From an uncultured Bacilli bacterium (GTDB taxonomy: Bacteria; Bacillota_I; Bacilli_A; RF39; UBA660), in NCBI GenBank assembly GCA_934190785.1, contig CAKPTA010000001.1, positions 13,514 through 77,513 of the forward strand: 64,000 nucleotides of DNA, written 5' to 3'. Positions 2,188 through 48,112 of this stretch are shown one piece after another (positions within the stretch are counted from its first letter, which is position 1; each line of letters starts with the position of its first letter). The translations under genes and the position numbers were made by a program. The notes beneath the pieces were generated by a model. It saw only the letters and a list, made by a program, of their open reading frames with translations, searched no databases and was not told where the DNA came from.

Positions 2188-2307
2188 AATGGGGTTTATT
2201 AATTCCATTTTTTATTTGCTTTTTTGGAATATGAGATTTAACTTATTTAAATACTTTATCTATTGTTTAATAAATGATATACTACTAGATAGGATAGAGG
2301 TGATTTT

Positions 2308-3324: not shown

Positions 3325-3350
3325 AAATAGTTTAGTTGGGAGGATTTATT

Positions 3351-7180: not shown

Positions 7181-7265
7181 AAATTAATTAAAAATGAGTA
7201 AAATATGTTAAAAATTGCATAGGAATTAAGATGGTGATTATGAGATAATAATTCGTAATAATATA

Positions 7266-8270: not shown

Positions 8271-8296
8271 AGTTAATAATATTGAAGGAGGAACTT

Positions 8297-8592: not shown

Positions 8593-8677
8593 AAATTAAA
8601 ATAGATTTTGAGCTAATTCAAAAATCTAATTTTTTTATGATATAATAATAAAGAAATGAAAAAAGGAAGTGACTAAA

Positions 8678-9568
8678 ATGAATGAAAATCAAGATAAGGT
8701 GTTTAGTAAAACAAATATCAACTGGTATCCGGGGCATATGGCTAAAACAAAAAGACTTATTAAGGAAACCATTCATTTAATTGATATTGTGTATGAAATT
8801 GTTGATGCTAGAATTCCATATTCATCGAAGATTGTTGATATTGATGAATATATTAAAGATAAACCAAAAATTATGATTTTTTCTAAATACGATTTATGTG
8901 ATATAAATGAAACGAAGAAATGGATTAAATATTATCAAAATAAGGGTTATACTGTAATTCCTCTTGATAACATTCATAATCCAAATGTACAAGCTATAAT
9001 TAATGAAACTGAAAAAATAATGGATAATAACATTAAACAAAGGACAGACAAAGGTATGAATAAAAGAAAAATTCGTGCTTTAGTTGTTGGTATTCCTAAT
9101 GTTGGTAAATCAACTTTAATTAATCGTTTTGCAGGAAGAAAGGCTCTTGATGTTGGAAATAAACCTGGTGTTACAAAAGATTTACGATGGATTCGTATCA
9201 ATGATAAAATTGAACTTTTGGATAGTCCAGGTATGTTATATCCTAAGTTTACAAGTGAGAGTGTTGCTCTTAATTTAGCAAGCCTTACTGCTATTAAAGA
9301 GGAAATACTTCCTTTAGATAAAGTCGTTCAGTATATTTTAGATATGCTTTATAAGTATTATCCTGATATTTTAGAAAATCGGTATGGTATAAGTGAGTTA
9401 TCAGATTCTATATATGAAAATATAGATATTATTGGTAAAAAAAGAGGGTGCCTTGTAAGGGGTGGATTTGTAGATGAAGAGAAGGTTTATTCTATTATTA
9501 TGAATGATATAAAAGATGGTCATATTAAAAATATTACTTTTGATAGAATAGATGAAATTAATAATTAG
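8678..9568 (+). CDS. rbgA: ribosome biogenesis GTPase A (YlqF/RbgA)
   Basis: 'NWYPGHMAKTKR' signature, G-motifs 'GIPNVGKST' and 'DSPG'. AAAGGAAG RBS before ATG 8678; the track's GTG 8669 is less likely. Confidence 0.85.
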   Translation: MNENQDKVFSKTNINWYPGHMAKTKRLIKETIHLIDIVYEIVDARIPYSSKIVDIDEYIKDKPKIMIFSKYDLCDINETKKWIKYYQNKGYTVIPLDNIHNPNVQAIINETEKIMDNNIKQRTDKGMNKRKIRALVVGIPNVGKSTLINRFAGRKALDVGNKPGVTKDLRWIRINDKIELLDSPGMLYPKFTSESVALNLASLTAIKEEILPLDKVVQYILDMLYKYYPDILENRYGISELSDSIYENIDIIGKKRGCLVRGGFVDEEKVYSIIMNDIKDGHIKNITFDRIDEINN

Positions 9569-9580
9569 TAGGGGTGTTTT

Positions 9581-9958
9581 ATGGATGATACACTTTGTAT
9601 AAATTCACTTGCTTTAGCTTATTTAGGTGATAGCATTTATGAATTTTATGTAAGAAAATCTTTAATAAGAAAAGGTATTTTAAAAGTAAATGAATTACAA
9701 AAAAATGCAATTTTATATGTAAGTGCTAAAAATCAATCAATTTACTTGGAAAAATTAATTAATGAAAATTTCTTTAGTGATGAAGAAGTTCTAATTATTA
9801 AAAGAGCTAGAAATCATAAAAGTCATTCTAGTAAAACAACGGATATTAGAACTTATAAAAATTCAACTGGTTTAGAGGCTGTTATTGGCTATTTATATTT
9901 AGAAAATAATATAGCTAGAATTGATGAAATAATGAAGGAAATAATAGGTGATATTTAA
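9581..9958 (+). CDS. mrnC: mini-ribonuclease III
   Basis: 'LAYLGDSIYEFYVR' RNase III-like signature, about 125 aa, upstream of rlmB as in Bacillus. Confidence 0.8.
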   Translation: MDDTLCINSLALAYLGDSIYEFYVRKSLIRKGILKVNELQKNAILYVSAKNQSIYLEKLINENFFSDEEVLIIKRARNHKSHSSKTTDIRTYKNSTGLEAVIGYLYLENNIARIDEIMKEIIGDI

Positions 9959-10653
9959 TGTATATATATGGTAAAAATGTTGTCGAAGAAGCAATTTTAA
10001 AAAAAGAAAAAATAACAAAAGCTATAATTTATGAAAAATTTAATGATAAAAATTTAATTTCTGCTTTACAGAAATTGAATATTCCAATTCGTTATGCTCC
10101 AAAATTTGAATTAGATAAACTTGTAAATGGAATGCATCAAGGTATAATTGTAAGTGTCCCTGATTATGAGTATGCTAGCATAGATGATTTTATACATGAA
10201 GATAATGCACTTGTTGTTATTTTAGATCACCTAGAAGATCCACATAATCTTGGAGCTATTATTCGTACATGTGAGGCTGCAGGAGTATCTGGGATAATTA
10301 TACCAAAGGATCGATCTGTTTTAGTTAATGCTACTGTAATAAAAGTTAGTACTGGTGCTACTAGTAATATGAAAATAGCTCGTGTTACTAATATTGTTAA
10401 AACCATTGAAGAAATGAAAAAAGATGGATTTTGGATTGTTGGAAGCGATATGAATGGAACTAGTTATGATGAGATTGATTACCGTGGTAAAACTGCTATA
10501 GTTATTGGAAATGAAGGCTCTGGGATGAGTAGATTAGTTCGTGAATCTTGTGACTTTATTGCTAGTATTCCAATGATAGGGACAACTAATAGCTTGAATG
10601 CCAGTGTTGCAACTGGAATTCTAATTTATGAAGCTTTGCGTAAAAGAAAGTAG
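9958..10653 (+). CDS. rlmB: 23S rRNA (Gm2251) 2'-O-methyltransferase, SpoU/TrmH family
   Basis: SpoU motifs 'HLEDPHNLGAIIRTCEAAGV' and 'IVIGNEGSGMS'; conserved position before sigH. Confidence 0.8.
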   Translation: MYIYGKNVVEEAILKKEKITKAIIYEKFNDKNLISALQKLNIPIRYAPKFELDKLVNGMHQGIIVSVPDYEYASIDDFIHEDNALVVILDHLEDPHNLGAIIRTCEAAGVSGIIIPKDRSVLVNATVIKVSTGATSNMKIARVTNIVKTIEEMKKDGFWIVGSDMNGTSYDEIDYRGKTAIVIGNEGSGMSRLVRESCDFIASIPMIGTTNSLNASVATGILIYEALRKRK

Positions 10654-10659
10654 GTAGAT

Positions 10660-11274
10660 ATGAATTATAGTGACTACAATGACTATGAATTACTTAGTTA
10701 TGTTCAGGAAAATAATGAAGAAGCTGTAGAGGTATTATATAAAAAATATGAACCATTAATATCTTCAATCGCACATAAAATGTATAGGTATACTCCTAAA
10801 TGTGGTATAGATGTAAATGATTTAAAACAGGAAGGTCGTCTTGGGTTATCAAAAGCTATTTTAGAGTATAAAGATTCTATGAATACAACTTTTTATACTT
10901 TTGCTAAGACTTGTATTGAAAGAAAAATAATTACAGCTGTAATTGCAACAAGGAGATTGAAACATAAGTTTTTAAATGAGTCGCTATCTTTAAACATTGA
11001 ATCTGATGGTAAATCTATTTCATTAGATGAGTTTTTAGGTGATAATGGAAGTAATCCAGAATATGTACTTTTGGATGTTGAAAATTATAATTATATCTTA
11101 GACAAAATATCTGAGGAATTAACAGTACTTGAGAAGCAAGTCTTTAGTCTTCGAATTAGCGGCCTTAGTTATAAAGAAATTGCTGATATTTTATCTTATA
11201 AAGAAAAAGTTATTGATAATTGTTTACAGAGAATAAAAGCAAAAGCTAAAAAAGTTTTGAAAAATATGGAATGA
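10660..11274 (+). CDS. sigH: RNA polymerase sigma factor, SigH-like (sigma-70 family)
   Basis: Sigma-70 regions 2 and 4 ('ELTVLEKQVFSLRISGLSYKEIADIL'); synteny rlmB–sigH–…–secE–nusG matches Bacillus. Confidence 0.65.
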   Translation: MNYSDYNDYELLSYVQENNEEAVEVLYKKYEPLISSIAHKMYRYTPKCGIDVNDLKQEGRLGLSKAILEYKDSMNTTFYTFAKTCIERKIITAVIATRRLKHKFLNESLSLNIESDGKSISLDEFLGDNGSNPEYVLLDVENYNYILDKISEELTVLEKQVFSLRISGLSYKEIADILSYKEKVIDNCLQRIKAKAKKVLKNME

Positions 11275-11395
11275 TAAATTTTATTTAAAAAAGTAAAAAA
11301 AGATGTACATTTTACTTTTTTTTTGTTATACTAATTGTGATATTAGTAATATAGGGGACTAATGATTATACAAAAGAATAAAAGGAGATGTTTTT

Positions 11396-12418
11396 ATGGC
11401 GGAAAAAAAAGATAATGCAGTAGAAGAGATTGAAAGTAAAATTACTGATGAAGAAAATATAGAACCTATTGAAATGGATGATGATTTTTATTATCCTGAA
11501 ATTGATACTTTAGATGACGAAATTAATGCACATAGTGATAAGGATATTAAGGTACCAGATATAAAGCTTGATGAATCTTTAGGTCTTGGTGATGATATAA
11601 AAGAACCACTTGTTTTTAATGCACCAATAGAAAATGAAAAAATGATTTCTTCTTCAAATACTTCTTCAGCAAATAATTCTGATTTTGATACTTTGTTTGA
11701 CAATTTATACAATGATGTTGCAGGAGCAAATAAATTTATATCTAATTTAATTGAGCAAAAGAAAAGTGTTACTGATAATGCAGCAAATCTTGAAGAAGAT
11801 AGAGATAAATTAGAAAAAGAAAAAGCTGAATTTGAACGCTATGTTGAAAGTCAAAAACAAAGTATTGAACTTGCTAAAGCTCAATGTGACGAGTATGTTC
11901 GTACACAAAAGGCAAGAATTCAGAATGAAGAAGCCCAATTTAATGCTGACCAAGAAGCAGCACGAGCTGAGTTAGATCTTAATGATGCCTCTGTTAAAGC
12001 AGCTTCTGAAAAATTAGATTCTGAAAAAACACAATTTTATGTTTATAAAGAGCTAGAAGAAAAGAGACTTGAAGCAGAAAAAGAAAAAGTAGAAAGTGAT
12101 AGAAAAAAATTAGATGCTGATATAAAGCAATTTAATAATGAACAAGATGTTGCATTAACGAAATTAAAATCAGAGCAAGAAGAACTTCAAAATGAAAAAG
12201 ATCAATTCGAAAAATCTAAAAATATTGATTTAGAAAAAATAAAAAATGCACAATTAGAAATTGTAAGTCAAAGAGAACAATTTGAAAAGTTTAAAGATAT
12301 AGAAGAGAAAAAGCTTGAACTTGAAAGTAAAAACTTGTCACAAAGTGTAGCACGTTTTAGAGAACTTGTTTCACAATTTAATTCTGGATTCCAACAATTA
12401 CCTGAAGATAAACGTTAG
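11396..12418 (+). CDS. hypothetical acidic coiled-coil protein (paralog 1)
   Basis: AGGAG RBS. Acidic N-terminus, then long heptad-like 'KxDxEKxQFExxK' repeats; C-terminus 'ARFRELVSQFNSGF'. Confidence 0.6.
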   Translation: MAEKKDNAVEEIESKITDEENIEPIEMDDDFYYPEIDTLDDEINAHSDKDIKVPDIKLDESLGLGDDIKEPLVFNAPIENEKMISSSNTSSANNSDFDTLFDNLYNDVAGANKFISNLIEQKKSVTDNAANLEEDRDKLEKEKAEFERYVESQKQSIELAKAQCDEYVRTQKARIQNEEAQFNADQEAARAELDLNDASVKAASEKLDSEKTQFYVYKELEEKRLEAEKEKVESDRKKLDADIKQFNNEQDVALTKLKSEQEELQNEKDQFEKSKNIDLEKIKNAQLEIVSQREQFEKFKDIEEKKLELESKNLSQSVARFRELVSQFNSGFQQLPEDKR

Positions 12419-12432
12419 TAGAGGTATAAGTA

Positions 12433-13350
12433 ATGAATGAGAATAAGGTTAGGGATAATGAGTCTTTAGATATTAAATTTAAAGATAAGAAAAAGGACAA
12501 AAAAAATAAACCAAAAGACGGAAGCTTTGATTTACTTTCAAGTGCTGGTGATGATTATTTAAATAAATTGTCAGGTGAAAACGAGGCTATCAAGGAAAGT
12601 GAAGAAAAAGATGCAGATACATTACTTGATACGCATGAATTTGATCTTTCAATTGATTTAAATAATTCTGATGCAGCTACTTTAGACTCTAATGATGAAA
12701 AAAATACTTCTACAATTGAAACAAAAGTAGTTAATGATGACTCTAGAAAACTAAGTGATGAAAAAAATAGTAGTTCAGAAAAAAAAGATACTAAGGATTT
12801 AAATAGCATTTTTGAAATAGTTAATAACAACGTAAAAGAAGCTACTAATTTATTCAATAAAAATATTGAAATGAAAAGAAAAATTGAAGAACAACTTGAT
12901 GCTCTTAGAAAAGATAAAGAAGAACATGAAGCTAAAAAGAATGCTGATTATCAAAAAATTAAAACTTATAAACAAGAAGTATATGATAAATTAAAAGCAA
13001 AAAAAGAAGAAGTTGAAAGTGAAATTGCTTCTTTAAAAGAAACACAAATAAAAATTATTAACGAAAAAAACAAGTTTGAAAAATATAAAAGAGAAGAGCT
13101 TACTAGATTAAAAGAACAGGAAGCAAAGAATCAAATTATATTGGAGGAAGAAAAGGCAAAACTTGAAGAAGAAAAAAATAAATTGAAAGTAGAAAAAAAT
13201 TCATTAGAGGAAGCTAAACATTCTTTAGAGCTTGATAGAATTAAATATGAAAATGATAAAAATGAACTTGCCAATAATTTGATGAAATTTAATGAATTGG
13301 TTGGAGATTTTACCGTTGGAATTGATAGATTCAATTTAGATGATAATTAA
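12433..13350 (+). CDS. hypothetical acidic coiled-coil protein (paralog 2)
   Basis: Same architecture as 11396..12418; C-terminus 'MKFNELVGDFTVG' is parallel to paralog 1. Confidence 0.6.
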   Translation: MNENKVRDNESLDIKFKDKKKDKKNKPKDGSFDLLSSAGDDYLNKLSGENEAIKESEEKDADTLLDTHEFDLSIDLNNSDAATLDSNDEKNTSTIETKVVNDDSRKLSDEKNSSSEKKDTKDLNSIFEIVNNNVKEATNLFNKNIEMKRKIEEQLDALRKDKEEHEAKKNADYQKIKTYKQEVYDKLKAKKEEVESEIASLKETQIKIINEKNKFEKYKREELTRLKEQEAKNQIILEEEKAKLEEEKNKLKVEKNSLEEAKHSLELDRIKYENDKNELANNLMKFNELVGDFTVGIDRFNLDDN

Positions 13351-13373
13351 GAGATTTTAAATCTCTTTTTTTG
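13351..13373 (+). terminator. rho-independent terminator
   Basis: Hairpin GAGATTTTAAATCTC followed by T7. Confidence 0.6.
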
Positions 13374-13397
13374 TATATATTTTAGTTGTAAATATGA

Positions 13398-13426
13398 TTG
13401 ACGAAACATAAAATGTATGGTATTAT
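13398..13426 (+). promoter_or_regulatory. sigma-A-type promoter for secE–nusG
   Basis: TTGACG, 17-nt spacer, TGgTATTAT extended −10. Confidence 0.5.
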
Positions 13427-13480
13427 TTACTTAGACACGTAAGTGTTTTTTATTTGGAAATTTTGAAAGTTGGTGGAGAG

Positions 13481-13651
13481 ATGAAAAATTTTTTAATTGA
13501 TGTCAAAAATGAATTAAAAAAAGTCAGATGGCTTAATAAAAAAGAAATGACTAAATACTCTATCGCTACAGTTGCATTTATTCTAATTTTTTCTATATTT
13601 TTTGGAGGACTTGATTTAATTCTTGCAGGAATTAAATCAATTATTAAATAG
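13481..13651 (+). CDS. secE: preprotein translocase subunit SecE
   Basis: 56-aa single-TM protein 'KKVRWLNKKEMTKYSIATVAFILIF'. GGTGGAGAG RBS before ATG 13481; immediately upstream of nusG. Confidence 0.8.
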   Translation: MKNFLIDVKNELKKVRWLNKKEMTKYSIATVAFILIFSIFFGGLDLILAGIKSIIK

Positions 13652-13652
13652 T

Positions 13653-14177
13653 ATGCAAAAAGAATGGTATGTAGTAAATACTTATTCAGGACATGAAAAT
13701 AAAGTAAAAGAAAAATTAGAAATGCGTGCAAGTTCAATGGGAATGGAAGACTATATATATAGAGTTGTTGTTCCAGAACAAGTAGAGGTAGATGAAAAGG
13801 GAAAAGAAAAAACAAAAAAAATGTTTCCAGGATACATTTTGGTTGAAATGGTAATGAATGATGAGGCTTGGTTTATTGTTCGTAATACACCAGGTGTAAC
13901 AGGATTTATTGGTTCTTCTGGTAAAGGAGCTAAACCATTTCCTTTAACTCCAGCTGAAGTTGATAAAATACTAGGAAGTATGGGAATGAGCAGACTTGAA
14001 ATTGGAAACTCATTAAATGTTGATGACAGTGTTAAGGTAATTAGCGGACCATTTGCTAATATGTACGGAAAAATTAAAAAGATTGATATGGAAAACCAAA
14101 AACTAGAAGTATTACTAGATTTATTTGGACAAGAAACTTCTGTTGAGCTTGGGCTTACAGAAATAGAAAAGGCTTAA
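13653..14177 (+). CDS. nusG: transcription termination/antitermination factor NusG
   Basis: 'KEWYVVNTYSGHENKV' N-terminus, and KOW motif 'GPFANMYGKIKKID'. Confidence 0.9.
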   Translation: MQKEWYVVNTYSGHENKVKEKLEMRASSMGMEDYIYRVVVPEQVEVDEKGKEKTKKMFPGYILVEMVMNDEAWFIVRNTPGVTGFIGSSGKGAKPFPLTPAEVDKILGSMGMSRLEIGNSLNVDDSVKVISGPFANMYGKIKKIDMENQKLEVLLDLFGQETSVELGLTEIEKA

Positions 14178-25471: not shown

Positions 25472-26137
25472 ATGAACGCTGAAATGAAGTATATGAATGA
25501 ACTTGAAGTTTTAATTAATTTATTTACTATTGAAAAAGGAGTTTTAAAAGTCTTACTTGTAAGAAGAGATATTGAGCCATACAGAGGATATTGGATGCTT
25601 CCAACAGGTCTTTTACTTTCAAATGAAACAATAGAGGAGTGTTCAAGAGAAGTTTTGTATGAATGGCTTGGACTTAAAGATATTCATCTTGAAAATTGTG
25701 GTATATATAGTGAACTTAAGCGTATCCCAGTTGAGAGAGTAATAGGATCGTCACTTACAGGAATAATTGATATTGATAGTTTTAATATTAAAAGAAAGAA
25801 AAATATTGAATCATTTGCGTGGTTTTCCGTTGATGAAATACCAAAGGTTGTTTATGATCATGATCAAATAATTATGGATGCTAGTAAATACATAAGAAAA
25901 AGACTTCGTCAAATTGATTTCTTAAAACATTTATTTCCAAGTGATTTTACGCTTCCTGAACTTCAAATGACTTATGAACAAATTATAGGTAAATCTCTAG
26001 ATAGAAGGAATTTCAGAAAGAAGATAATTAGTTTAGATATATTAGAAGATACTAAATATAAAAATGAAGAAACTAATGGAAGACCAGCAAAATTATATCG
26101 TTTTAAAGATGAAATAGAGGGGGAGATGATGTTTTAA
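25472..26137 (+). CDS. NrtR-like Nudix-related transcriptional regulator (degenerate Nudix domain + C-terminal winged helix)
   Basis: Nudix box-like 'GLLLSNETIEECSREVLYEWLGL' with an insertion in REUXEE; C-terminal 'RRNFRKKI…GRPAKLYRF' wHTH. AAGGAG RBS before ATG 25472. Confidence 0.55.
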   Translation: MNAEMKYMNELEVLINLFTIEKGVLKVLLVRRDIEPYRGYWMLPTGLLLSNETIEECSREVLYEWLGLKDIHLENCGIYSELKRIPVERVIGSSLTGIIDIDSFNIKRKKNIESFAWFSVDEIPKVVYDHDQIIMDASKYIRKRLRQIDFLKHLFPSDFTLPELQMTYEQIIGKSLDRRNFRKKIISLDILEDTKYKNEETNGRPAKLYRFKDEIEGEMMF

Positions 26138-26583
26138 TGCGATTAAATGAAAAAGGTTTTGAACTTTCAACTATGTTAGCATTTTGTCTTTGCTTTTGTT
26201 TATGTCTTATTTTTGTAGCAGTTTCATATAATCAAAAACTTTCTACTAATACACCTATTAAGAATAATAATACAGTAAGCAAAAGTGATAATGATACTAA
26301 TAAAATTCAAACAACAACTAAGGATTCTTCTAAATATCAAGAGATTGAACAGGCTTTAGCTAAAGAAATAGAAGATAGTATCGGAGATAAGGTTTCATAT
26401 GGGAAGCTTATTATTTCTAATGATAATATTAAAAGTAATTTTGAATCTTTATGGAAAGAGTATACTGAACTTAAAGATTGTACAGGATATGCTATTATAG
26501 ACGCTGATAAAAAAGAAACAAAGGTTTATTTAAACTGCTATAAAAATTATCAAACACAAAATTATAACATTGATTTTGAATAA
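26137..26583 (+). CDS. hypothetical exported/membrane-anchored protein
   Basis: N-terminus 'MRLNEKGFELSTMLAFCLCFCLCLIFVAV' is pilin-like plus TM; the start codon overlaps the preceding stop. Confidence 0.45.
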   Translation: MRLNEKGFELSTMLAFCLCFCLCLIFVAVSYNQKLSTNTPIKNNNTVSKSDNDTNKIQTTTKDSSKYQEIEQALAKEIEDSIGDKVSYGKLIISNDNIKSNFESLWKEYTELKDCTGYAIIDADKKETKVYLNCYKNYQTQNYNIDFE

Positions 26584-26640: not shown

Positions 26641-26731
26641 GGAGACATACTCAAGAGGCTGAAGAGGCGCCCCTGCTAAGGGTGTAGGTCGGGCAACTGG
26701 CGCGAGGGTTCAAATCCCTCTGTCTCCGCCA
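26641..26731 (+). tRNA. tRNA-Ser (anticodon GCU), CCA encoded
   Basis: Acceptor stem GGAGACA/TGTCTCC. Anticodon stem CGCCC/GGGTG with loop CUGCUAA. Long variable arm, T-loop GGTTCAAATCC, 3' GCCA. Confidence 0.85.
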
Positions 26732-26741
26732 TTTATGATAT

Positions 26742-26777
26742 AAACGAATTTTATAATTCGTTTTTATTTTTTTATTT
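26742..26777 (+). terminator. rho-independent terminator after tRNA-Ser
   Basis: AAACGAATTttatAATTCGTTT hairpin plus T-rich tract. Confidence 0.65.
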
Positions 26778-26839
26778 TGATAAATTATAGTTTAGGCAAG
26801 AAAATAGATGCTCCATATATTAAAGTAAGGAGGTATTTT

Positions 26840-27433
26840 ATGTCATTAAAAAAATGTGCTGAAATAGAAAAAAATGCTAAAATTAAAAATAAATTATTAA
26901 ATATTGGCATTGGATATCCAATAATAGGTCCAACAGGACCAAGAGGTGAAGCAGGTCAAAGAGGAGAAAAGGGTGAAAAAGGTGATAAAGGAGATCCTGG
27001 AGTAGATGCTGTTGCTTCAAATGATGGAATTTTTTTCACAAGTTTTGTAGAAACTGATACATCAGAAAAGATGACTTTTCAAGACTCTTGGTTTGTACCA
27101 AATAAAACAGAATTTTTTCAAATATTAAATGATAGTGATGTACAGGTAAAAGCTGGTATTTATGAACTAGCCTTTTCAGGGTTAATAGAACAAGCAGATG
27201 ATACTCATGGAGCTCAAGTTTATCTTCAAACTAGCGAAGGCGAAGCGGTTCACGATTTAACATTTAAGTTGGAAGGTGGAAGTGGAAAACAATTGTCATT
27301 TTCACAGACAATATTGTTTAGATTTGAAAAAGATACAATATTGCAAGTGATGGCAAATATATTAGGTGATGAAGATACATCTGATATTATTATATCTGAT
27401 GTTAATTTACTCATGAAAAAAATTCATGAATAA
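26840..27433 (+). CDS. collagen-like (G-x-y)n repeat protein with C-terminal BclA/C1q-like globular domain
   Basis: 'GPTGPRGEAGQRGEKGEKGDKGDPG' triple-helix repeats followed by a roughly 140-aa beta-rich domain; AAGGAGG RBS before ATG 26840. Confidence 0.7.
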   Translation: MSLKKCAEIEKNAKIKNKLLNIGIGYPIIGPTGPRGEAGQRGEKGEKGDKGDPGVDAVASNDGIFFTSFVETDTSEKMTFQDSWFVPNKTEFFQILNDSDVQVKAGIYELAFSGLIEQADDTHGAQVYLQTSEGEAVHDLTFKLEGGSGKQLSFSQTILFRFEKDTILQVMANILGDEDTSDIIISDVNLLMKKIHE

Positions 27434-27465
27434 ATTTATACGAATAGTCCAGGTACACCCACACG

Positions 27466-27501
27466 CCACTTGACAAGTGGGGGTGGGGTGTATGCTAAAA
27501 T
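27466..27501 (+). promoter_or_regulatory. putative promoter/operator upstream of the pilin-like gene
   Basis: Perfect inverted repeat CCACTTG-a-CAAGTGG (27466..27480) overlaps a TTGACA hexamer (27470..27475). TAAAAT at 27496, but spacing to −35 is non-canonical. The surrounding segment is unusually GC-rich. Confidence 0.35.
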
Positions 27502-27529
27502 ACACTTTAGAATAGAGGTGTATTTTTTT

Positions 27530-29122
27530 ATGAAAAAGAAAGGTTTTACGCTTATAGAATTACTTGCCGTAATAGTTGTTCTAGCAGTAGTCACATTAAT
27601 ATCAATGCCACTAGTATTAAATACAATAGATAAGGCAAAGAAAGGTGCAGCTATAGAATCAGCTAATGGTGTTATATCAGCAGCTGAGAATAAATACATG
27701 AGTAGTATGATAACAGGAGATAAAGATACAAGATTTGATTTTCCAAGTGATACCAAGTTATCAATCAAAGGAACAAGACCAACAAGTGGAACAGTTGTCG
27801 TTGATAAGAAAGGTAATATAAGTGCTACTTTAGAAATAAATGGATACTGCATAGAAAAGACGTTTCTTGAAACATCACCAAAAGTAATAGAAAAAAGTCC
27901 ATGTACAATTAGTGATAGTGAGCTTTTTGAAGCAGAAAAATATAAAGATTCTGTTTTAAATGGAGCAGACCCTGTTATAAATAGTGACTTAGTAGCAGTA
28001 ACAATAGAAAATGATGGAACAGTAAAAAAAGCCGATATCAAAAAAGAATGGTATAACTATAAAAATAAAGTATGGGCCAATGCGATTATTCTAAAAGATA
28101 AAACAATAAACTATGAAGATAATGAAGTAATACCAGAAAGTAATATTGAATCATATTTTGTATGGATACCAAGATATAAATATAGAATATTTAATGAAGG
28201 AAATTATACAAACTATATAGAAGGAAAACCAGAAAGTTCAAGTAAACCAGATACAATAGAAATAGTATTTGAAGATAAAAACACAAGTGTATCAAAAGGA
28301 AGTAAAGTAGGAGAATACTTAACACATCCAGCCTTTACAAGTTTTGAAAGTAATGGATTTTGGATGGGAAAATTTGAAGTAACAGGAAGTACAAGTAATA
28401 TAACAGTAAAACCAAATAATACATCACTTCGAAATATAAATGTAAAATCAATGTTTGAGCTAGCTTACAATTATAATAGAAATTTAGATAGTCATATGTT
28501 AAAAAATACTGAATGGGGAGCAGCTACATACTTATCATATTCAGTATATGGAATAAATGATGAAGTAAATATAAATAATAATAGTAACTTTGTAACAGGA
28601 TATAGTGCGGTTTCTGGAACAGATCAAAGTAGTTATCCTGGAATATATGGAACCGCATCAAATATAACACTTGCATATAATACAGAAACAGGATATAGGG
28701 CAAGTACAACAGGAAATATAAGTGGAGTATACGATATGAGTGGAGGAGCATGGGAATACATGGCTTCATATGTAAAAGATACATATAAAGATAGTGGTTT
28801 TGATGCATCCTCAATATCTAAGTATAATTCAAAATACTTTGATGTTTATCCAAGTCCAAGTGGATGGACAAGCTATAACAAACGAATTTTAGGAGATGCA
28901 ACGGGAGAGATGGGACCATTCTATTATTACAAAGAAAAAGATGAAACTAGTAGAATACATAACTCTTGGTTTGGTGTCTCCTCTGACTTCGTTGTCGCTT
29001 CTTACCCTTGGTTCGGTCGCGGAGGCCGTTACACTGGCGGCGTTCTTGCAGGTCAGTCGGGCTTCGGTAGGTTCACTGGTGGTGCGCTCGGTTGGGGTGG
29101 CTTCCGCCTCGCTCTTACATAA
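27530..29122 (+). CDS. type IV pilin-like protein with large C-terminal domain (prepilin-type N-terminal cleavage/methylation signal)
   Basis: 'MKKKGFTLIELLAVIVVLAVVTL' class-III signal peptide. 530-aa body rich in N/T/S/Y. Gly/Arg-rich C-terminal tail. AGAGGTG RBS. Confidence 0.7.
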   Translation: MKKKGFTLIELLAVIVVLAVVTLISMPLVLNTIDKAKKGAAIESANGVISAAENKYMSSMITGDKDTRFDFPSDTKLSIKGTRPTSGTVVVDKKGNISATLEINGYCIEKTFLETSPKVIEKSPCTISDSELFEAEKYKDSVLNGADPVINSDLVAVTIENDGTVKKADIKKEWYNYKNKVWANAIILKDKTINYEDNEVIPESNIESYFVWIPRYKYRIFNEGNYTNYIEGKPESSSKPDTIEIVFEDKNTSVSKGSKVGEYLTHPAFTSFESNGFWMGKFEVTGSTSNITVKPNNTSLRNINVKSMFELAYNYNRNLDSHMLKNTEWGAATYLSYSVYGINDEVNINNNSNFVTGYSAVSGTDQSSYPGIYGTASNITLAYNTETGYRASTTGNISGVYDMSGGAWEYMASYVKDTYKDSGFDASSISKYNSKYFDVYPSPSGWTSYNKRILGDATGEMGPFYYYKEKDETSRIHNSWFGVSSDFVVASYPWFGRGGRYTGGVLAGQSGFGRFTGGALGWGGFRLALT

Positions 29123-29147
29123 AAACTGTATTATACAGTTTTTTTGA
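29123..29147 (+). terminator. rho-independent terminator
   Basis: AACTGTATtATACAGTT hairpin plus T6. Confidence 0.65.
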
Positions 29148-35090: not shown

Positions 35091-35117
35091 AAAAAAGAGT
35101 GCTAAGCACTCTTTTAA
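35091..35117. terminator. bidirectional terminator between convergent genes
   Basis: AAGAGTGCTaAGCACTCTT hairpin flanked by A8 and T4. Confidence 0.65.
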
Positions 35118-35980
35118 CTATTATAAAGCTCTTCTTTTAATAGTGACATATTTTCATTCATTAAACTAATATAATCCATTTTATTAGTTCTATCTTTATC
35201 TGACATATTTGATAAATCATATAACTCGGCAATAGTAACATTTGTATTTTTTTCTATATTTTTAACAACATCACTTAAGTTATCTTTATCAGTTGTAAAA
35301 ATATAACTAATAGATCCATCTGCAATCATTTTTGTAACATCAGCAATATTTTTTTCTGTAACTGTTGTAGGGTCTAGTGATATAATTTTAAATCCATACT
35401 TTTCTAGAAACTTAAATTCATTATTATCAACAACTAAAGTATTGTTATCTGAACTTGAATTCATTAAATTAAAATTAGCGTCTATATTTGATATTTCTAA
35501 TTTTAAAGCTTCATATTTTTCTTCAATTTCATTTTTTAAGTAATGGTTTTCAATATATTCAGAAAGACCATTTTTAATATTTAATGAAAGCATTAAGAAA
35601 TTGGAAGGATCTAACCAAAGTTCATTTTGATTATATGTATATTCCATACTTTGAGAAGCATCAATAATCATTAAGTTTTTATTATATTTAAAAAGTGAAT
35701 TAACGTAATCTTTTTCTTTTGATAGACCATTAAATATATACATATCTGTTTTGCTATAGTCTTCAATTTGTTTAGATGTAAGACTATATTTAGTAATATC
35801 AATACTATTTGGATAAATACTATATACTGTGCTGTGTTCTCCATATAGGTAGTTTGTAATATATTCAATTGGGTAGGCTGTTGTATATATTGTTATATCT
35901 TCTAGATTATCTCTTTTAAAACATCCTGTCATTAAAAATGAGATAAATAAAATATTTAGTGTAATAATAAATTTTTTCAT
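35114..35980 (-). CDS. hypothetical lipoprotein
   Basis: Signal peptide with lipobox 'LMTGCF'; 288 aa; no catalytic motif recognised. Confidence 0.55.
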
Positions 35981-36210
35981 AAAATTTCCCTTTCTTTCTT
36001 TTTAATTGGTACAGGGTCTAAACCAGCTTTATGTAGAGGATTGCATCTTAAAACTCTTCTTACAGAAAGATATAATCCATATACTATTCCATAATTTTCT
36101 AAAGCTTCAATAGCGTAAGATGAGCATGTTGGAACATATCTACAGTGTGTATGTGAAGAAAAAGGTGCCCTTTGGTACCATTTGATAATTTTAATTAGTA
36201 GCTTTTTCAT
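35977..36210 (-). CDS. yidD: membrane protein insertion efficiency factor YidD
   Basis: '[31 protein letters not shown]…[14 protein letters not shown]' signature. Confidence 0.85.
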
Positions 36211-36305
36211 TTTAACACCAAAATAATTATACTAAAAATTATAAAAAAAGTAAAATAAATACACACTGTCTTTTATTTTTTGATATAATGTTTACAGGTG
36301 ATACT

Positions 36306-36971
36306 ATGGAAATATTAGATAAGTTAAATGTTAAAACAGAAAATATTGCTTTATATGAAACTGCATTTACTCATACATCTTATGCGAATGAATTTGGTGT
36401 AGAAAGTTATGAACGCCTTGAATATTTAGGAGATGCTGTACTAGAACTTGTTATGAGTGATTATTTATATAAAAATACGTCTTATGATGAAGGAACAATG
36501 ACTAAGATGCGTGCTCATTATGTTTGTGAAACTGCTTTATATGAATATTCTATGACACTTGGTCTTAATGAATATTTGCGTCTTGGTCATGGTGAAGAAG
36601 AAAATGGTGGAAAATTTCGTAAAGCAATTGTTGCTGATATATATGAGGCTTTTACAGGAGCACTATACTTAGATCAAGGTCTTGACAAAGCAAAAGAATT
36701 TATCTATATGACAGCTATTCCTTGTGTTATAAATAACTCTTTTGATTTCTTTCATGATTATAAATCAAAACTTCAAGAACTTGTTCAAACTGACAAAAGA
36801 AGCTTGGAGTATGAAATTGTAGATGAAGAAGGACCTGCTCATCATAAAATATTTACAGCTATTGTTAAAATAGATAATATTATATATGGAAAGGGAGTAG
36901 CTGGAAGTAAAAAAGAAGCAGAGCAAGAAGCAGCTCATGATGCTTTAAAAAAAAGCATTGGGAATGAATAA
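36306..36971 (+). CDS. rnc: ribonuclease III
   Basis: 'ERLEYLGDAVLELVMSDYLY' RNase III signature and C-terminal dsRBD 'GPAHHKIF…GSKKEAEQEAA'. AGGTGA RBS before ATG 36306. Confidence 0.9.
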   Translation: MEILDKLNVKTENIALYETAFTHTSYANEFGVESYERLEYLGDAVLELVMSDYLYKNTSYDEGTMTKMRAHYVCETALYEYSMTLGLNEYLRLGHGEEENGGKFRKAIVADIYEAFTGALYLDQGLDKAKEFIYMTAIPCVINNSFDFFHDYKSKLQELVQTDKRSLEYEIVDEEGPAHHKIFTAIVKIDNIIYGKGVAGSKKEAEQEAAHDALKKSIGNE

Positions 36972-43441: not shown

Positions 43442-44522
43442 TGAAGATATTTTGAATATAGAAAATTTGAAATATTCAAGTAATACTTATGTAATTAGAT
43501 GGAATATGACAAAATTGTGTAATTACTACTGTGATTTTTGTATTCAAGGTGACAAAGATAAACATATAAAAGATAGCATTGGTGAAAACAAAGAAGTAAG
43601 ACATGAAATAGCTTTAAAAATAGTTAAATTTATAGAAGAAAAAATAAATAATAAATATAGTAATCTTCATATCTATTTAATTGGTGGAGAAGTAACAATA
43701 TTAAGTGATTTTAGAGATATATTTAAAATATTACTTAATGTTAAATTTGAAGGTGATATGGAGTTTCATATAACTACAAATCTATCTTGTAGGACGGAAT
43801 TCTTAGAAAATTTAAAAAGTGATTTTTTAAGTGTAAAATCGAAGTATAGTCGTAAATTATCTATTTCAGCTAGTTATTATAAAGAATTTTCAAACGAAGA
43901 AGAATTTATAAAGAAAGCAAGAATACTTCATAGTAATAGTGCTATAAGATATTATTTGATTAGTAAAAAAAACAAGTTTAAAAAAAATAAAATTATTTAT
44001 AAATATTTAAATCATCTTTCTAAAAATCCAATTATCATTATTTCAATTTCTTATCCACTTGTTGAAGATAAAGATTACGATTTATATAGAGCATTTAAAC
44101 GTAAATATTCTAAGTATGTAAATGCGATTAATTATATAATTGTTAGAAATTACAAGAAATCTATTTCAAATGATTTAAAAGATAAATTAAGTAATTCTAA
44201 TCGTAAGAGAATAAAATTAACAACTAAAACTGGTAAAGTATATTATTTTTCAAGTACAAGTAAAATAGGACTTTTAATTAATAAAACAAAACATTTTACT
44301 CCTAAAGGCTTTTTATGTGATTCTGGAGTTAACAGTATATCTATTAATTCACATGGTCTAGTATCACGTTGTCCTAGTTGTTCAAATTTGACGATTATAG
44401 GTAGTATTTTAAAAGATGATATAGATATTTTAAAAACTAAAATATCATGTCCTAGTTTAAGTTGTAGTTGTGATTACTATCATGTTATTGAAAGTAGGAA
44501 AAAAGATGAAACAAAAAACTAA
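43434..44522 (+). CDS. radical SAM protein with C-terminal SPASM/twitch-like Cys-rich domain
   Basis: 'KLCNYYCDFC' CX3CX2C near the N-terminus; C-terminal 'CDSG…RCPSCSN…CPSLSCSCDYY' auxiliary-cluster cysteines. Confidence 0.65.
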   Translation: MNNEDILNIENLKYSSNTYVIRWNMTKLCNYYCDFCIQGDKDKHIKDSIGENKEVRHEIALKIVKFIEEKINNKYSNLHIYLIGGEVTILSDFRDIFKILLNVKFEGDMEFHITTNLSCRTEFLENLKSDFLSVKSKYSRKLSISASYYKEFSNEEEFIKKARILHSNSAIRYYLISKKNKFKKNKIIYKYLNHLSKNPIIIISISYPLVEDKDYDLYRAFKRKYSKYVNAINYIIVRNYKKSISNDLKDKLSNSNRKRIKLTTKTGKVYYFSSTSKIGLLINKTKHFTPKGFLCDSGVNSISINSHGLVSRCPSCSNLTIIGSILKDDIDILKTKISCPSLSCSCDYYHVIESRKKDETKN

Positions 44523-46674
44523 AATAATATTTATAATTTTATGTTTTTTAATTATAGCTGTTGCTTTATTATTTATTGTCTTTAAAGATAAAAAGGTTAT
44601 TCTTAATATTGATTTAAAAAAACAAAATAATGTTTATTATGTAGAAAATGATGATAATTTATCCATTCTAGATTTGAAATATCAAAATAGTGTTACAACA
44701 CTTATAAATAATAAAAAGAATGATAAAATATATACCGTTAAAGCTCCTTTATTAATTATTAATCCATATAGTACTAATATTACAGGGTTGTATATTTATT
44801 TTACTACTTTTAAAAAATATAAAATAGAGTATGTAATTCATACAACTGATGATGTAGCTGATTACACTAATACACTTGCAAGTGGTCTTAGTCACTTTCA
44901 TGAAGGGCAAATAATTGGTCTCATTCAAGGAACTAAGAATGTTATTACTATAAGATTAGTTGATTCAAATAATAATGTAAAAGATGAATATAAATATGAA
45001 ATAGATGTTCCTGATTTTAATACTAATTCTATTAAAAGAATAGAAAGTGATATGGAAGTTGATAGTTCTGAAATAGAAGATGGACTTTACATGTTTTCTA
45101 ATATATCAGCATCATCAGATGATATTAATATTCCTTTGTCATTTTATGATAAATATGGTATTTTAAGAGCTGAATTTACTGAAGAGAGCGGAAGACATAC
45201 TAATAGAGTTATTTATATAGACAACAAGTTTTTATATGCTTTTGATTCATATAATTTTGTTCTTGTAAATGGTCTTGGTAAAATAGAAAATATATATCAT
45301 ACAATTGATAAAAATGAACACGATTATATTTATGATGAGAGTAAAAATGCGATTTTATATGTAGCTGGGCTAGATATGGTTAGAATACTTAATTTAAATG
45401 ATTATAGTGATGAGTTATTATTTGATTTAAATGATGTTATGAAAGATTATAGTGATAAAGCAAAAGAATATGCTTCCATTCACAATCCAAGTGATACATA
45501 TGATTGGGCACACATAAATAGTATTGAAATAGTAAATGATAATGATTTAATATTATCACTTCGTGAGTCATCTAGTATAATTTATTTTGAAAATGTATAT
45601 AAATCACCTAAAATAAAATATATTATTGCCCCTAAAGCAATTTACGAGAATACAGGATATGAGGATTATTTATTAAAACAAGTAGGGGAATTTCCTGTTA
45701 ATGCTGGGCAGCATAGTGTTTATATAGAAAAAGATAACAGTTTAAAAGAAGGTAGTTATTATTTATATTTTTTCAATAATAACTATGCAAAAAGTTCAAC
45801 CGTTGTAAATGAAGATTGGGTTAATACTATTGAGGGGGTTGGACAAAGAAGTAATGGTGCTTCTAGATCTATGTATTATAAATATTTAATTGATGAGGAT
45901 AGTAGAACATTTGAACTTGTAGATAGTATGGATGTACCATATTCAAATGCAAAGAGTATTGTAACAAAATATCATAATAATTATATAGTTGCACTAGGAA
46001 AGCGTAGTTCAATTTATGAATATGATGAAAATAAAAAACTTCTTCTTAAACTTAGAATGAATGTTTATAAGGATATTTATAGAGGCTTTAAATTAGATAT
46101 GAATCACTTTTGGTTTGATACTAGTAGATATACAAAACAAGAAAATAAAAATTATGATACAATTATCGAGGAAGATAACGAAAGTATTTTTAATTATAAT
46201 AAAAAAACAGGAACTATTTTAGGTGTAAATAGTAATAATTCAGCTATAAATGAAAGTAATATTATTTATTATGATACTCTTTATTTTACAATATATGACT
46301 ATAGTGATGATACTATCATTATTCCAAGTTCAATTAATAATGTTAAAATAAAAAGTATAGCAGGAATAAACCTTAATAATGTAAAAAAAATAATCATTGA
46401 AGAAGGAATTGAAAAAATAGATAATTATGCTTTCTTAGGTTGTGATAATTTAGAAGAAATTATTTTACCAAGTACTTTAAAAAGTATAGGAAGTTACGCT
46501 TTCTTAAATTTAAAAAAAATAAAAAATATTTATATACCTGATAGTATAGATTACATAGGTGAATATGCTTTTAAAGGCTTCGATGATACTGAAACAATAT
46601 CACTGCCCAAAAATAGAAATTACGCAGCAAATTGGAAAACTAACATGAAGGCAAAAATAGAATGGAGAGACTAA
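44506..46674 (+). CDS. exported ASST-family (arylsulfotransferase-like) beta-propeller protein with C-terminal BspA-type leucine-rich repeats
   Basis: N-terminal signal anchor; 'DTYDWAHINSIEIVNDNDLILSLRESSSIIYF' ASST-like core; C-terminal 'IDNYAFLGCDNLEEIILPSTLKSIGSYAF…' LRR_5 repeats. AGGAA RBS before ATG 44506. Confidence 0.5.
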   Translation: MKQKTKIIFIILCFLIIAVALLFIVFKDKKVILNIDLKKQNNVYYVENDDNLSILDLKYQNSVTTLINNKKNDKIYTVKAPLLIINPYSTNITGLYIYFTTFKKYKIEYVIHTTDDVADYTNTLASGLSHFHEGQIIGLIQGTKNVITIRLVDSNNNVKDEYKYEIDVPDFNTNSIKRIESDMEVDSSEIEDGLYMFSNISASSDDINIPLSFYDKYGILRAEFTEESGRHTNRVIYIDNKFLYAFDSYNFVLVNGLGKIENIYHTIDKNEHDYIYDESKNAILYVAGLDMVRILNLNDYSDELLFDLNDVMKDYSDKAKEYASIHNPSDTYDWAHINSIEIVNDNDLILSLRESSSIIYFENVYKSPKIKYIIAPKAIYENTGYEDYLLKQVGEFPVNAGQHSVYIEKDNSLKEGSYYLYFFNNNYAKSSTVVNEDWVNTIEGVGQRSNGASRSMYYKYLIDEDSRTFELVDSMDVPYSNAKSIVTKYHNNYIVALGKRSSIYEYDENKKLLLKLRMNVYKDIYRGFKLDMNHFWFDTSRYTKQENKNYDTIIEEDNESIFNYNKKTGTILGVNSNNSAINESNIIYYDTLYFTIYDYSDDTIIIPSSINNVKIKSIAGINLNNVKKIIIEEGIEKIDNYAFLGCDNLEEIILPSTLKSIGSYAFLNLKKIKNIYIPDSIDYIGEYAFKGFDDTETISLPKNRNYAANWKTNMKAKIEWRD

Positions 46675-46675
46675 T

Positions 46676-48112
46676 ATGAAAGTTAAAAAAATTGTATTTA
46701 TTGTAGCTTTATTATTGATTTTATGTGGTATTTTTTATTGTTTACCATATAAAAATACCGTAGAATTATATATAAATGGTGAAAAATTCATTTTATCATC
46801 AACAGATGAAAATAGGGAATTTGATTTAAAAACATTATCATCTACTAGAGATAGTTATGTCAAAGTTACTACAAATGGGAAGACAAATGTTAAAGTTAAT
46901 GGGAAAAGAGTATTTAAGTATATAAAAAATAATATCGGAAAAATTGCTATAAATGAAGATAATAAAATTGAAATTGAAATAAAATTTGGTACAAACAAAA
47001 AAGCTACTAAATATGTTATTAATACATTACCATCAACATTTTTAGAATATGATACAAAAAATAACGGTGATAATTATGATGGCATTTATTATATGAGTAC
47101 TTATTCTTTAGCTGATCAAACAAGTTACATTTTTAATTTAAACAGTAATGGAGAGGTACTTTATTATAAAAGTGTGGAAGGTTTTTGTTCACAGTTTAGG
47201 CATGAAATTTCAAAGAGTGGTAAAGATAGATTTGTCTATACAGCCCAGGATTTATCTGATGACAAAACAGTTGATATGAACAATATATATGGTAAATTTG
47301 TTGTTATGGATGAAAATTATAAAGTAATAGATGAAGCTCGTTATATAACAGAAAGAGAAGATGAAAAAACATATACAATATTTGAATATATAGATGATTA
47401 TCACTATCTTATGACTTCATCATACAAATCATATGTGGATGATATTGAAGGCTTTGATAAGGTTATGTTAACACAAAATAACATTGAAGAAGTGGAAAAT
47501 GGTAAAGTCATCTTTAAGTGGGAAAGTGAAGAACATAAAGAACTTTATGATTATACTGATACAAGTACATTTACAAGTGAAGATACAAATGATTATTTGC
47601 ATATTAATAAGATTATAATTGATCCTGTAGATGGCAACATTATAGCTTCATTTAGAAATATCAGTACGATTTTAAAAATAGATAGAAAAACAGGTGATAT
47701 TATTTGGTCACTTGGTGGTAAAAAAGATGATTTTGGATTAACTCTAGATGAAATGTTCAATTATCAACATTCTCTATCATTCACGAGTGATCATTCACTT
47801 ATGATTTTTGATAATGGAGATAATAGACCTCTTCTTGGAATAAAAAATGAATCAAAAGTTGTTAAAATAAAATTGGATGAAAAAAATAAAAAAGTAGAAA
47901 ACTATAAAGCATATAAACTTAATGGTGTATATTCAATGGCCATGGGTTCAGTTCAAGTAATAGATGAAGAAAATGATGTGTTTTTAGTTACATATGGAAC
48001 AGGAATATTTAATAATGGACCAGTGGCACTTATTGATTTTAAAAATAATAAAAATTTATTTGAGTTTAATCTTCATTCTAATAAAATGATGTTTTCTTCT
48101 GAAAAAGAATAA
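46676..48112 (+). CDS. exported ASST-family (arylsulfotransferase-like) beta-propeller protein
   Basis: Signal anchor; 'HINKIIIDPVDGNIIASFRNISTILKIDRKTGDIIWSLGG…QHSLSFTSDHSLMIFDNGDN' matches ASST family hallmarks. Confidence 0.55.
   Translation: MKVKKIVFIVALLLILCGIFYCLPYKNTVELYINGEKFILSSTDENREFDLKTLSSTRDSYVKVTTNGKTNVKVNGKRVFKYIKNNIGKIAINEDNKIEIEIKFGTNKKATKYVINTLPSTFLEYDTKNNGDNYDGIYYMSTYSLADQTSYIFNLNSNGEVLYYKSVEGFCSQFRHEISKSGKDRFVYTAQDLSDDKTVDMNNIYGKFVVMDENYKVIDEARYITEREDEKTYTIFEYIDDYHYLMTSSYKSYVDDIEGFDKVMLTQNNIEEVENGKVIFKWESEEHKELYDYTDTSTFTSEDTNDYLHINKIIIDPVDGNIIASFRNISTILKIDRKTGDIIWSLGGKKDDFGLTLDEMFNYQHSLSFTSDHSLMIFDNGDNRPLLGIKNESKVVKIKLDEKNKKVENYKAYKLNGVYSMAMGSVQVIDEENDVFLVTYGTGIFNNGPVALIDFKNNKNLFEFNLHSNKMMFSSEKE

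Follow-up and report, generated by a model that had tools for sequence, protein, structure and literature searches.

The stretch of DNA analysed here (hereafter the window) comprises 64 kb of Bacillota DNA of about 26% GC from an uncultured Bacilli bacterium. Its genes include rpoB-rpoC, an NrtR-type regulator, a 148-aa membrane protein, tRNA-Ser(GCT), open reading frames (ORFs) for proteins of 197 and 530 aa, and a GDPD phosphodiesterase, in this order; NrtR, GDPD and QueH are the genes neighbouring the set formed by the tRNA, the collagen-like 197-aa protein and the pilin-like 530-aa protein. The last of these is the main subject of this study. As judged from its sequence and a structure model, it is a modular type IV pilin-like protein with a ligand-binding-type module; the 3' end of its gene is, on alignment evidence, the variable region (VR) of a diversity-generating retroelement (DGR), and a G-tract lies within its promoter. 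The features of the locus are collected in Table 1.

Table 1. Features of the tRNA-Ser/collagen-like/pilin-like locus (positions in the window)
Feature	Position	Strand	Evidence
tRNA-Ser, anticodon GCT	26641-26731	+	ARAGORN; counterpart in L049 100% identical
tRNA terminator: 9-bp hairpin AAACGAATT-ttat-AATTCGTTT and T-run; site of a 3.78-kb cassette in other strains	26742-26779	+	sequence reading; junctions compared with L049
Collagen-like protein, 197 aa, independent neighbour of the pilin system	26840-27433	+	ORF, Pfam, structure model, homologue alignment
Conserved upstream region common to all close paralogues; homology between loci begins here	27443-27529	+	alignment; blastn starts
Perfect 7+1+7 palindrome CCACTTG-A-CAAGTGG centred on the -35 element TTGACA (27470-27475)	27466-27480	+	DNA fold z -2.8 to -5.2
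G-tract in the promoter spacer, GGGGGTGGGG in the window	27479-27488	+	copy comparison
Extended -10-like element TGCTAAAAT	27493-27501	+	copy comparison
Modular type IV pilin-like putative DGR variable protein, 530 aa (coding sequence including stop)	27530-29122	+	ORF, Pfam, TIGR02532, AlphaFold2 (AF2), Foldseek
Pilin module: leader MKKKG, cleavage site G-1/F+1/E+5, alpha1 helix (residues 8-62), 4-5-stranded sheet to residue ~125	27530-27904	+	N_methyl, TIGR02532, AF2, PDB pilin matches
C-terminal module, residues ~138-530, C-type-lectin fold of the formylglycine-generating enzyme (FGE) type, no cysteine	27942-29119	+	Pfam FGE-sulfatase (23.7 bits), Foldseek, BFVD
DGR variable region (VR), codons 479-530, last 156 nt	28963-29118	+	alignment of VR and template, composition
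GC-rich 20-mer at the VR end, GGCTTCCGCCTCGCTCTTAC, resembling an initiation of mutagenic homing (IMH) site; putative assignment	29099-29118	+	alignment
Stem of ~12 bp (10-bp core), 3-nt loop and T-run, across the stop codon	29118-29146	+	DNA fold z -5.3

The 530-aa protein begins with MKKKG/FTLIELLAVIVVLAV, the slash marking the cleavage site. This N-terminus is recognized by Pfam N_methyl (28 bits) and TIGR02532, and a profile of the pilin-like family, compared with solved structures, matched the type IV pilin PilE1 (8pfb, E 3e-9) as well as TaqVP (E 0.006). In the AF2 model (pLDDT 91) a pilin module with strands at residues 68-120 is joined by a linker to a large module. The canonical prepilin signal proposed in the original prediction, an earlier annotation of this DNA made without database searches, is thus corroborated by both profiles, by the matches to pilin structures in PDB and by the modelled pilin fold. 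An exact-sequence database look-up of the protein returned no record.

Structure prediction of the C-terminal part, a step which the original prediction had recommended, gave a TaqVP-like fold. Foldseek produced one clear PDB match for this module, TaqVP (5vf4), a DGR variable protein of Thermus aquaticus (E 8e-9, probability 1.0); EgtB, OvoA and ToxD, which have FGE-type C-type-lectin (CLec) folds, obtained weak, non-significant scores (E 0.04-0.2, probability 0.16-0.72). The Pfam FGE-sulfatase score lies just over the cut-off, and the BFVD matches are FGE-domain tail-fibre proteins of gut phages. The FGE domain of FGE/SUMF1 enzymes contains a catalytic cysteine pair; the absence of cysteine from residues 138-530 rules out such an enzymatic identity.

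The pilin-like family is very large, with more than 7,900 clusters at 90% identity, derived mostly from gut metagenomes and metagenome-assembled genomes labelled 'Bacilli bacterium'. It is multicopy within genomes and occurs also in Saccharibacteria and Nomurabacteria. The C-terminal module of about 390 residues is portable, since relatives carry it fused to N-termini resembling TasA/camelysin (PF12389), a fibre-forming family, or to a pilin plus Big_2. In three of the relatives (P0067, P0068 and P0088) the module follows a signal anchor and a Peptidase_M73/TasA-camelysin-like N-terminus, pointing to a further type of fibre on which the module may be displayed. Homologues of the module with non-pilin N-termini are DGR targets also in Saccharibacteria (L036, 8924-11440) and Nomurabacteria (L034, 4733-7000; L numbers denote the fetched loci of relatives).

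Assembly of the 530-aa protein into a pilus and a role as an adhesin would be in keeping with this architecture, and the minor pilin or pilus-presented adhesin of the original prediction is a reasonable functional class for a modular pilin with a ligand-binding-type module, even though the island origin attached to it was not upheld (see below). Alternatively, the prepilin-type N-terminus might do no more than anchor the protein in the membrane or direct its export, or might enter a short pseudopilus of the Com or type II secretion system kind, with the module remaining at the cell surface. Pilus genes are indeed absent from the window and from the fetched flanks, these genomes encode many orphan N_methyl proteins (125-1610 aa), and the C-terminal module also occurs on N-termini other than pilins. 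We nevertheless regard this explanation as unlikely, given the canonical N-terminus (G-1, F+1, E+5) with a complete pilin module, the TasA/camelysin-like character of the alternative N-termini, which favours filament display, and the precedent of Streptococcus sanguinis, whose modular pilins of like design are established adhesins (PMC8179133). Within the window, a regular-expression search found no prepilin motif other than that of this gene, and Pfam analysis of ~45 ORFs detected neither pilus-assembly nor tad genes. The remoteness from pilus-assembly genes noted in the original prediction therefore stands, whereas the tad locus that it placed 34 kb away does not exist: the region at ~60-63 kb encodes CoA-enzyme activase/BcrAD-type proteins, and that at 42-60 kb contains glycan-synthesis genes.

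Copies of the pilin gene with 80-92% identity were found in other assemblies in unrelated housekeeping contexts, of which there are at least four, with at least five copies in one assembly. They lie between YfhO and UvrA (L043, L047), between RecO-DUF212 and ClpB (L045), after RnfC (L046), and in a tandem array and further loci of a single assembly (L055-L057). According to blastn and alignment, the copies are homologous to one another from ~90 nt upstream of the ATG as far as the stop codon. The tandem array (L055, 4281-7871) comprises three family genes, the third having a G9 promoter and the second no separate promoter element. Several contigs have their start (L004, L018) or end (L048, L050, L024) at the repeat tract or promoter or immediately ahead of it, which fits assembly breaks at multicopy or length-heterogeneous sequence.

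The most distinctive part of the gene is its 3' end. The VR has 60% GC and 65% GC at third codon positions (GC3), compared with 26% and 13% in the genome, and between close (~90%) copies the last ~50 residues are only 42-73% identical, against 81-95% for the remainder. The original prediction is silent on this hypervariable end (28963-29118), as it is on the G-rich promoter element (27466-27501). At L045, a related contig outside the window, the stop codon is followed after 164 nt by a second copy of the gene's last 156 nt (11760-11915). This adenine-rich copy, in which 9 codons are AAC, is a DGR template repeat (TR). Compared with this TR, the window VR differs at 23 of 33 adenines and at only 2 of 123 other positions, and the VR of L045 itself at 18/33 and 2/123, respectively. 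The same adenine-specific pattern was observed between cognate VR and TR of other loci: 13/38 adenines and 4/112 other positions at L001, 17/38 and 4/108 at L003, and 14/32 and 1/93 at L026. About 15 VR codons are variable, and these match AAY/GAY codons of the template. The template counterpart of the IMH-like end (GGTTTCC...) shows a single C/T difference which is common to most VRs. By these sequence criteria, the last 52 codons of the pilin gene are a DGR variable region. The hairpin across the stop codon is a terminator and possibly also a DGR target-site hairpin, which would then take part in retrohoming.

Complete cassettes were identified in relatives. At L001/L002, L003 and L026 the TR is followed by an ORF with a MutS_I domain, bAvd (PF22296) and an RVT_1 reverse transcriptase (RT), directly downstream of family genes. 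An RT stands beside family members at 8 of 42 genome loci and 9 of 80 metagenome loci, and one was also found at L134, in a chromosomal infC-rpmI-rplT context. The loci L001 and L002 lie 130 kb apart on one 215-kb contig and share a 7,039-bp segment (6911-13949) duplicated with 99.9% identity, so that this genome has two DGR cassettes; the segment contains a G8 promoter, target, TR, MutS_I ORF, bAvd and RT, with the repeat-tract promoter upstream of the whole target-TR-avd-rt string. The window contains no TR, RT or Avd, and the copy found there would therefore be a remote (trans) target. A tblastn search with RT, Avd and MSL against the window and all loci did not find the clade's own RT, and among the 120 matches listed for the L001 RT none was tied to a contig carrying a close pilin copy. 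One abundant RT cluster with a full cassette (P0187) was considered as the DGR of this clade; its TR is only 82% identical to that of L045, and it was rejected as not cognate. At L045 the sole ORF between the TR and ClpB (11928-12197) encodes 89 aa with a weak DUF6273 match, and with no Avd or RT within 10 kb this is an unusual placement for a TR.

It could be argued that the window gene is a fossil target, diversified in the past by a retroelement since lost or silent; the VR would then be an allele frozen in its present form, and the G-tract a remnant in decay. Such an explanation would account for a window without TR or RT, for the L045 TR without an RT within 10 kb, and for the 12 and 9 non-adenine mismatches of the L046 and L044 VRs to that TR; it would also account for the tract being interrupted in the window and degenerate in L054, and for the deletion of the promoter core in L047 (see below). 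On the other hand, the window VR equals the L045 TR at 121 of 123 non-adenine positions even though the two genes are only ~90% identical overall, and this argues for retrohoming after the paralogues had diverged. Remote targets and separated components are, moreover, known for DGRs and escape standard detection (PMC8144416). We therefore consider a fossil target improbable, and think that the DGR may well be active in this genome at present.

The second conserved element shared by the copies is the promoter. The close copies have the consensus ...CCACTTGACAAGT-Gn-TGTATGCTAAAAT...AGAGGTGTATTTTTTTATG, in which a G-tract of variable length occupies the spacer between TTGACA and TAAAAT. L056 has a tract of G7 (spacer of 17 nt), L044 and L055 have one of G9 (19 nt), and L043, L045 and L046 one of G10 (20 nt). 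At the window's own locus in other strains (L049, L051) an uninterrupted G10 is found, and the window itself has G5TG4; the spacer is 20 nt in each case. The tract of L054 is degenerate (18 nt), and L047 has no promoter core. L047 (1-56) and L043 (9880-10000) represent one YfhO/UvrA locus, and their comparison shows that L047 lacks ~60 nt with the palindrome, G-tract and -10 element; the missing stretch lies between short similar sequences, and L047 represents either a promoter-less allele or an assembly collapse. A G-quadruplex interpretation of the tract was rejected by eye, as only two G-runs are present.

More distant relatives (40-55% identity) lack the exact sequence of the close copies and have G7-G10 or (TA)7-8 in a spacer of 15-20 nt that separates -35 and -10 hexamers close to consensus. 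In Nomurabacteria (L034) a G9 stands between TTGACG and TATAAT, and in Saccharibacteria (L036) a G9 lies inside the 5' signal-peptide coding region of the cis-target. The fetched DNA amounts to 1.3 Mb; in it, 20 of 106 family genes, compared with 5 of 762 other ORFs, are preceded by such a tract at a distance of up to 150 nt, and poly-G of at least 8 nt precedes 16 family genes and none of the other ORFs. These data suggest that tract length controls transcription by slipped-strand phase variation. In the window, the interrupted tract (G5TG4) together with the 20-nt spacer leads us to predict little or no expression of this copy and a reduced tendency to switch.

Alternatively, the tract may have nothing to do with switching, being either part of a palindromic operator or cruciform recognized by a regulator, or a homopolymer artefact of assembly. 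The 7+1+7 palindrome is in fact the core of a longer imperfect palindrome (27454-27492) centred on the -35 element, within which the G-tract pairs with a C-rich arm; most copies share one tract length, G10, and poly-G is error-prone in Illumina assemblies. Against this stand the recovery of the tract in independent assemblies from different studies, its unequal lengths (7, 9 and 10), the G-tract or (TA)n which divergent relatives without the palindrome have at the same spacer position between good hexamers, and the enrichment of poly-G of at least 8 nt upstream of the family (16 genes versus 0). We judge an explanation without switching to be rather doubtful.

Taken together, these observations allow us to propose a model, to which we assign a probability of roughly 0.75: the window gene encodes a modular type IV pilin combined with a DGR variable protein, is a remote target, and belongs to a multicopy family switched by poly-G tracts. 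Prepilin peptidase would cleave after G5, and the pilin module would become a subunit, probably a minor or tip one, of a type IV filament in the manner of PilB and PilC of S. sanguinis (PMC8179133). The CLec module would then bind its ligand through ~15 variable residues, which a DGR elsewhere in the genome would rewrite by mutagenic retrohoming from an adenine-rich TR, with the participation of RT, bAvd and the MutS_I-domain protein. Changes in tract length would set which paralogues are transcribed. The outcome would be a surface adhesin repertoire varying both by the copies expressed and by what each copy binds.

Several observations weigh against this model. Neither pilus machinery nor a prepilin peptidase was seen in any of the fetched flanks; TR, RT and Avd are missing from the window; and the L045 TR, the sole TR of this clade found, has no RT nearby, so that the DGR could be defunct in the lineage. 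As regards switching, only ~20% of the family genes have a tract, that of the window is interrupted, nearly all tracts of the clade (G9/G10) give non-optimal spacers of 19-20 nt, and the length differences come from comparing copies and strains rather than from a single population.

A more general version of the model can be put forward only tentatively, as possible but not quite probable. Variation would be organized in two tiers, in which repeat tracts in promoters or 5' coding regions choose members at random and a single trans-acting DGR rewrites their tips, displayed on type IV pilins or TasA-like proteins; this arrangement would recur across uncultured gut Bacilli and the Candidate Phyla Radiation (CPR; Saccharibacteria, Nomurabacteria). 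In cassettes of the L001 type the switchable promoter lies upstream of target-TR-msl-avd-rt, and mutagenesis itself may thus be gated too.

The original prediction regarded the collagen-like and pilin-like genes as a single, horizontally acquired module integrated at the tRNA gene. The tRNA-Ser and its terminator were confirmed by ARAGORN and by reading of the hairpin and T-run. The flank does vary between strains, as that interpretation would lead one to expect: L049 and L050 carry a 3.78-kb cassette (ABC-ATPase, FtsX permease, TetR) between the terminator T-run and the collagen-like gene, L048 has genes of the integrative and conjugative element (ICE) type upstream, and the tRNA-collagen-pilin segment of L049 is 98-100% identical to the window although its left flank (ZnuA, RNase III) is only 65-73% identical. 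The indel lies upstream of both genes and excludes them, and the mismatch in identity at L049 could stem from an assembly chimera joined at the conserved tRNA. Furthermore, no integrase adjoins tRNA-Ser, and the check for direct repeats suggested in the original prediction found no second copy of the tRNA 3' end and no att sites in the window. Outside the VR, which alone is atypical, codon usage of both genes is native (GC3 of 0.126 and 0.136, against 0.132 +/- 0.020 for 50 other ORFs). The decisive evidence is the dispersal of the pilin copies, which are found in many contexts away from tRNA genes, have individual promoters and are not accompanied by any collagen-like gene, just as collagen-like homologues elsewhere have other neighbours and are not beside family members. 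Relatives with at most 55% identity have no flanking genes in common with the window in a comparison of contig synteny, and because of this the test rests on the ~90% copies and on a 99% homologue of the collagen-like gene. The tRNA flank is indel-prone, and the two genes form neither a unit nor an integrated island; acquisition of both as one adhesion island at tRNA-Ser is very unlikely.

Some further details of this flank may be added. The 3.78-kb cassette (L049, 2998-6773) ends in a hairpin and T-run of its own and is absent at the window junction (26764-26779). In L048 the ICE-type genes which precede the same cassette include VirD4-like, sortase and large serine recombinase genes. The contrast between the divergent left flank of L049 (1-2870, compared with window 35114-36971) and its nearly identical tRNA-collagen-pilin segment is due either to recent transfer of that segment between species or to a metagenome chimera at the tRNA.

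The collagen-like gene looks independent of its neighbour, and a functional linkage with the pilin gene was rejected, the adjacency being confined to one species. The 197-aa protein consists of an N-terminal helix, 8 G-X-Y triplets (residues 30-54, nt 26927-27001) and a TNF/C1q-type jelly-roll domain (residues ~62-197, nt 27023-27430; model pLDDT >90). The BclA-like protein with G-x-y repeats and a globular C-terminal domain described in the original prediction is recognizable in this layout, with its triplets and modelled BclA/C1q-type fold. The Pfam Collagen score (24 bits) is under the gathering score, the BclA_C model gave no match, and no signal peptide was detected in the protein. In Foldseek, the C-terminal domain matched cyanophage tail-fibre tips best, followed by C1q-like proteins, BxpB, ExsFA and BclA (E 2e-5 for 1wck and 2z5w). 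Just 28 homologues were found in the homologue search. Triplet number varies widely among them in the alignment; the N-terminal helix, an IGPTGP junction and the C-terminal ...LLMKKIHE are conserved, and the IGPTGP after the helix bears no more than a resemblance to the N-terminal exosporium-targeting motif of Bacillus. The 99% homologue (L049, L051) again has a pilin gene downstream, and a 58% homologue has quite different neighbours.

Since the organism has sporulation genes (in the window, a sigE-like sigma factor and spoIIGA, the latter assigned by eye from the translation), a spore-surface fibre would be the simplest reading of this protein, and a phage-fibre remnant is an alternative. 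The BclA/exosporium collagen-like proteins of Bacillus (1wck, 2z5w) and the C1q/TNF-fold phage fibre tips share with it the G-X-Y repeats followed by a TNF/C1q jelly roll. As with BclA-type proteins, the host is a spore-former and the lack of a signal peptide is in common. In contrast to BclA, there are only 8 triplets and ~10% sequence identity, and the best structural matches are cyanophage tail-fibre domains.

Other parts of the window yielded a few further observations. The 148-aa protein (26137-26583) overlaps the NrtR stop codon and has no family match; its N-terminus, MRLNEKGFELSTMLAF..., is loosely like a prepilin signal without E+5. Two arylsulfotransferase-like proteins, one of them fused to BspA-type leucine-rich repeats, are encoded at 44470-48112 within a glycan-synthesis cluster which contains Wzy-like, radical SAM and glycosyltransferase GT4 genes as well as two asparagine-synthase-like genes. 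A 224-aa ORF (7302-7976) comprises the 'Recombinase' domain of large serine recombinases alone and is probably a fragment. Three ORFs at 604-3980 and two at 11396-13350 had no Pfam match.

DGRs are most abundant in gut microbiomes, and their cellular targets outside Bacteroides are poorly described. The locus presented here points to a very large lectin-fold, pilus- or fibre-borne family of uncultured gut Bacilli as DGR targets, most copies of which are dispersed and remote from an RT, and many of which have tracts placed as in phase-variable genes. If both layers operate, the result would be a combinatorial receptor repertoire, heritable but reversible, which could matter for attachment to host or glycans, for contact between cells and for evasion of phages. 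The locus is thus a directly testable example of the coupling of two classic diversity mechanisms. Remote DGR targets are systematically missed by standard detection, which expects the VR next to the RT (PMC8144416), and the conserved promoter and GC-rich VR may be useful markers for such targets in low-GC genomes.

The closest known counterparts of the C-terminal module are the variable proteins TaqVP of T. aquaticus (5vf4) and TvpA of Treponema denticola. They share the fold of the whole ~390-aa module, a VR located at the very C-terminus, with G-F-R-L as its last residues, a template rich in AAY, adenine-specific differences between VR and TR, and cassettes with bAvd and RT (here beside relatives). 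In contrast to these proteins, the module described here is attached to a type IV pilin, or to a TasA-like N-terminus in relatives, has ~14% identity to TaqVP, and belongs to a multicopy family in which most copies are remote from the RT, the cassettes include a MutS_I-domain ORF and the promoters contain repeat tracts.

The repeat tracts themselves have well-known parallels. A (TA)n tract lies between the -35 and -10 elements of Haemophilus influenzae hifA/hifB, poly-G/C is found in the Neisseria meningitidis porA/opc promoters and poly-A in the vlp promoters of Mycoplasma hyorhinis. Another example of repeat-based phase variation is the poly-G upstream of the Treponema pallidum tpr genes (PMC7864442). 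Common to promoter-spacer systems and the present family are a homopolymer or dinucleotide tract exactly between -35 and -10, a multigene family of surface proteins, a conserved promoter and a tract length that varies between copies. The present family differs in the coupling of its tract to DGR targets and in its host, an uncultured spore-former of low GC; switching, moreover, is here proposed from sequence comparison.

As regards the display of the module, PilB (vWA) and PilC (lectin) of S. sanguinis (PMC8179133, PMC9934059) have the same plan of a small pilin module, linker and large functional module, likewise in a monoderm, and their filament-presented adhesion is the role expected here too. 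In the present case, by contrast, the grafted module is a putatively DGR-diversified CLec domain, and the hypervariable genes exist in multiple copies, scattered at a distance from any pil locus. A DGR-type CLec module is not among the 15 commonest architectures of modular pilins named in the text of PMC8179133. Among domains that carry a VR, PMC11661182 mentions a pilin domain of the GspG type as a rare one. In gut Bacteroides, DGRs diversify the tip adhesins of type V pili (bioRxiv 10.1101/2024.11.15.621889), which is a comparable situation in that an adhesive pilus component of a gut commensal is concerned. Here, in contrast, the pilin is of type IV kind and the hosts belong to other phyla (uncultured Bacilli, and also CPR); the terms searched in that report did not bring up a phase-variable or invertible promoter. 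At the level of titles and abstracts, literature term searches linked DGR targets neither to prepilin signals nor to repeat-tract promoters. Modular pilins and DGR-diversified pilus adhesins are, therefore, already known, and what appears to be new at this locus is the combination of a DGR-target module with a type IV pilin and with repeat-tract promoters.

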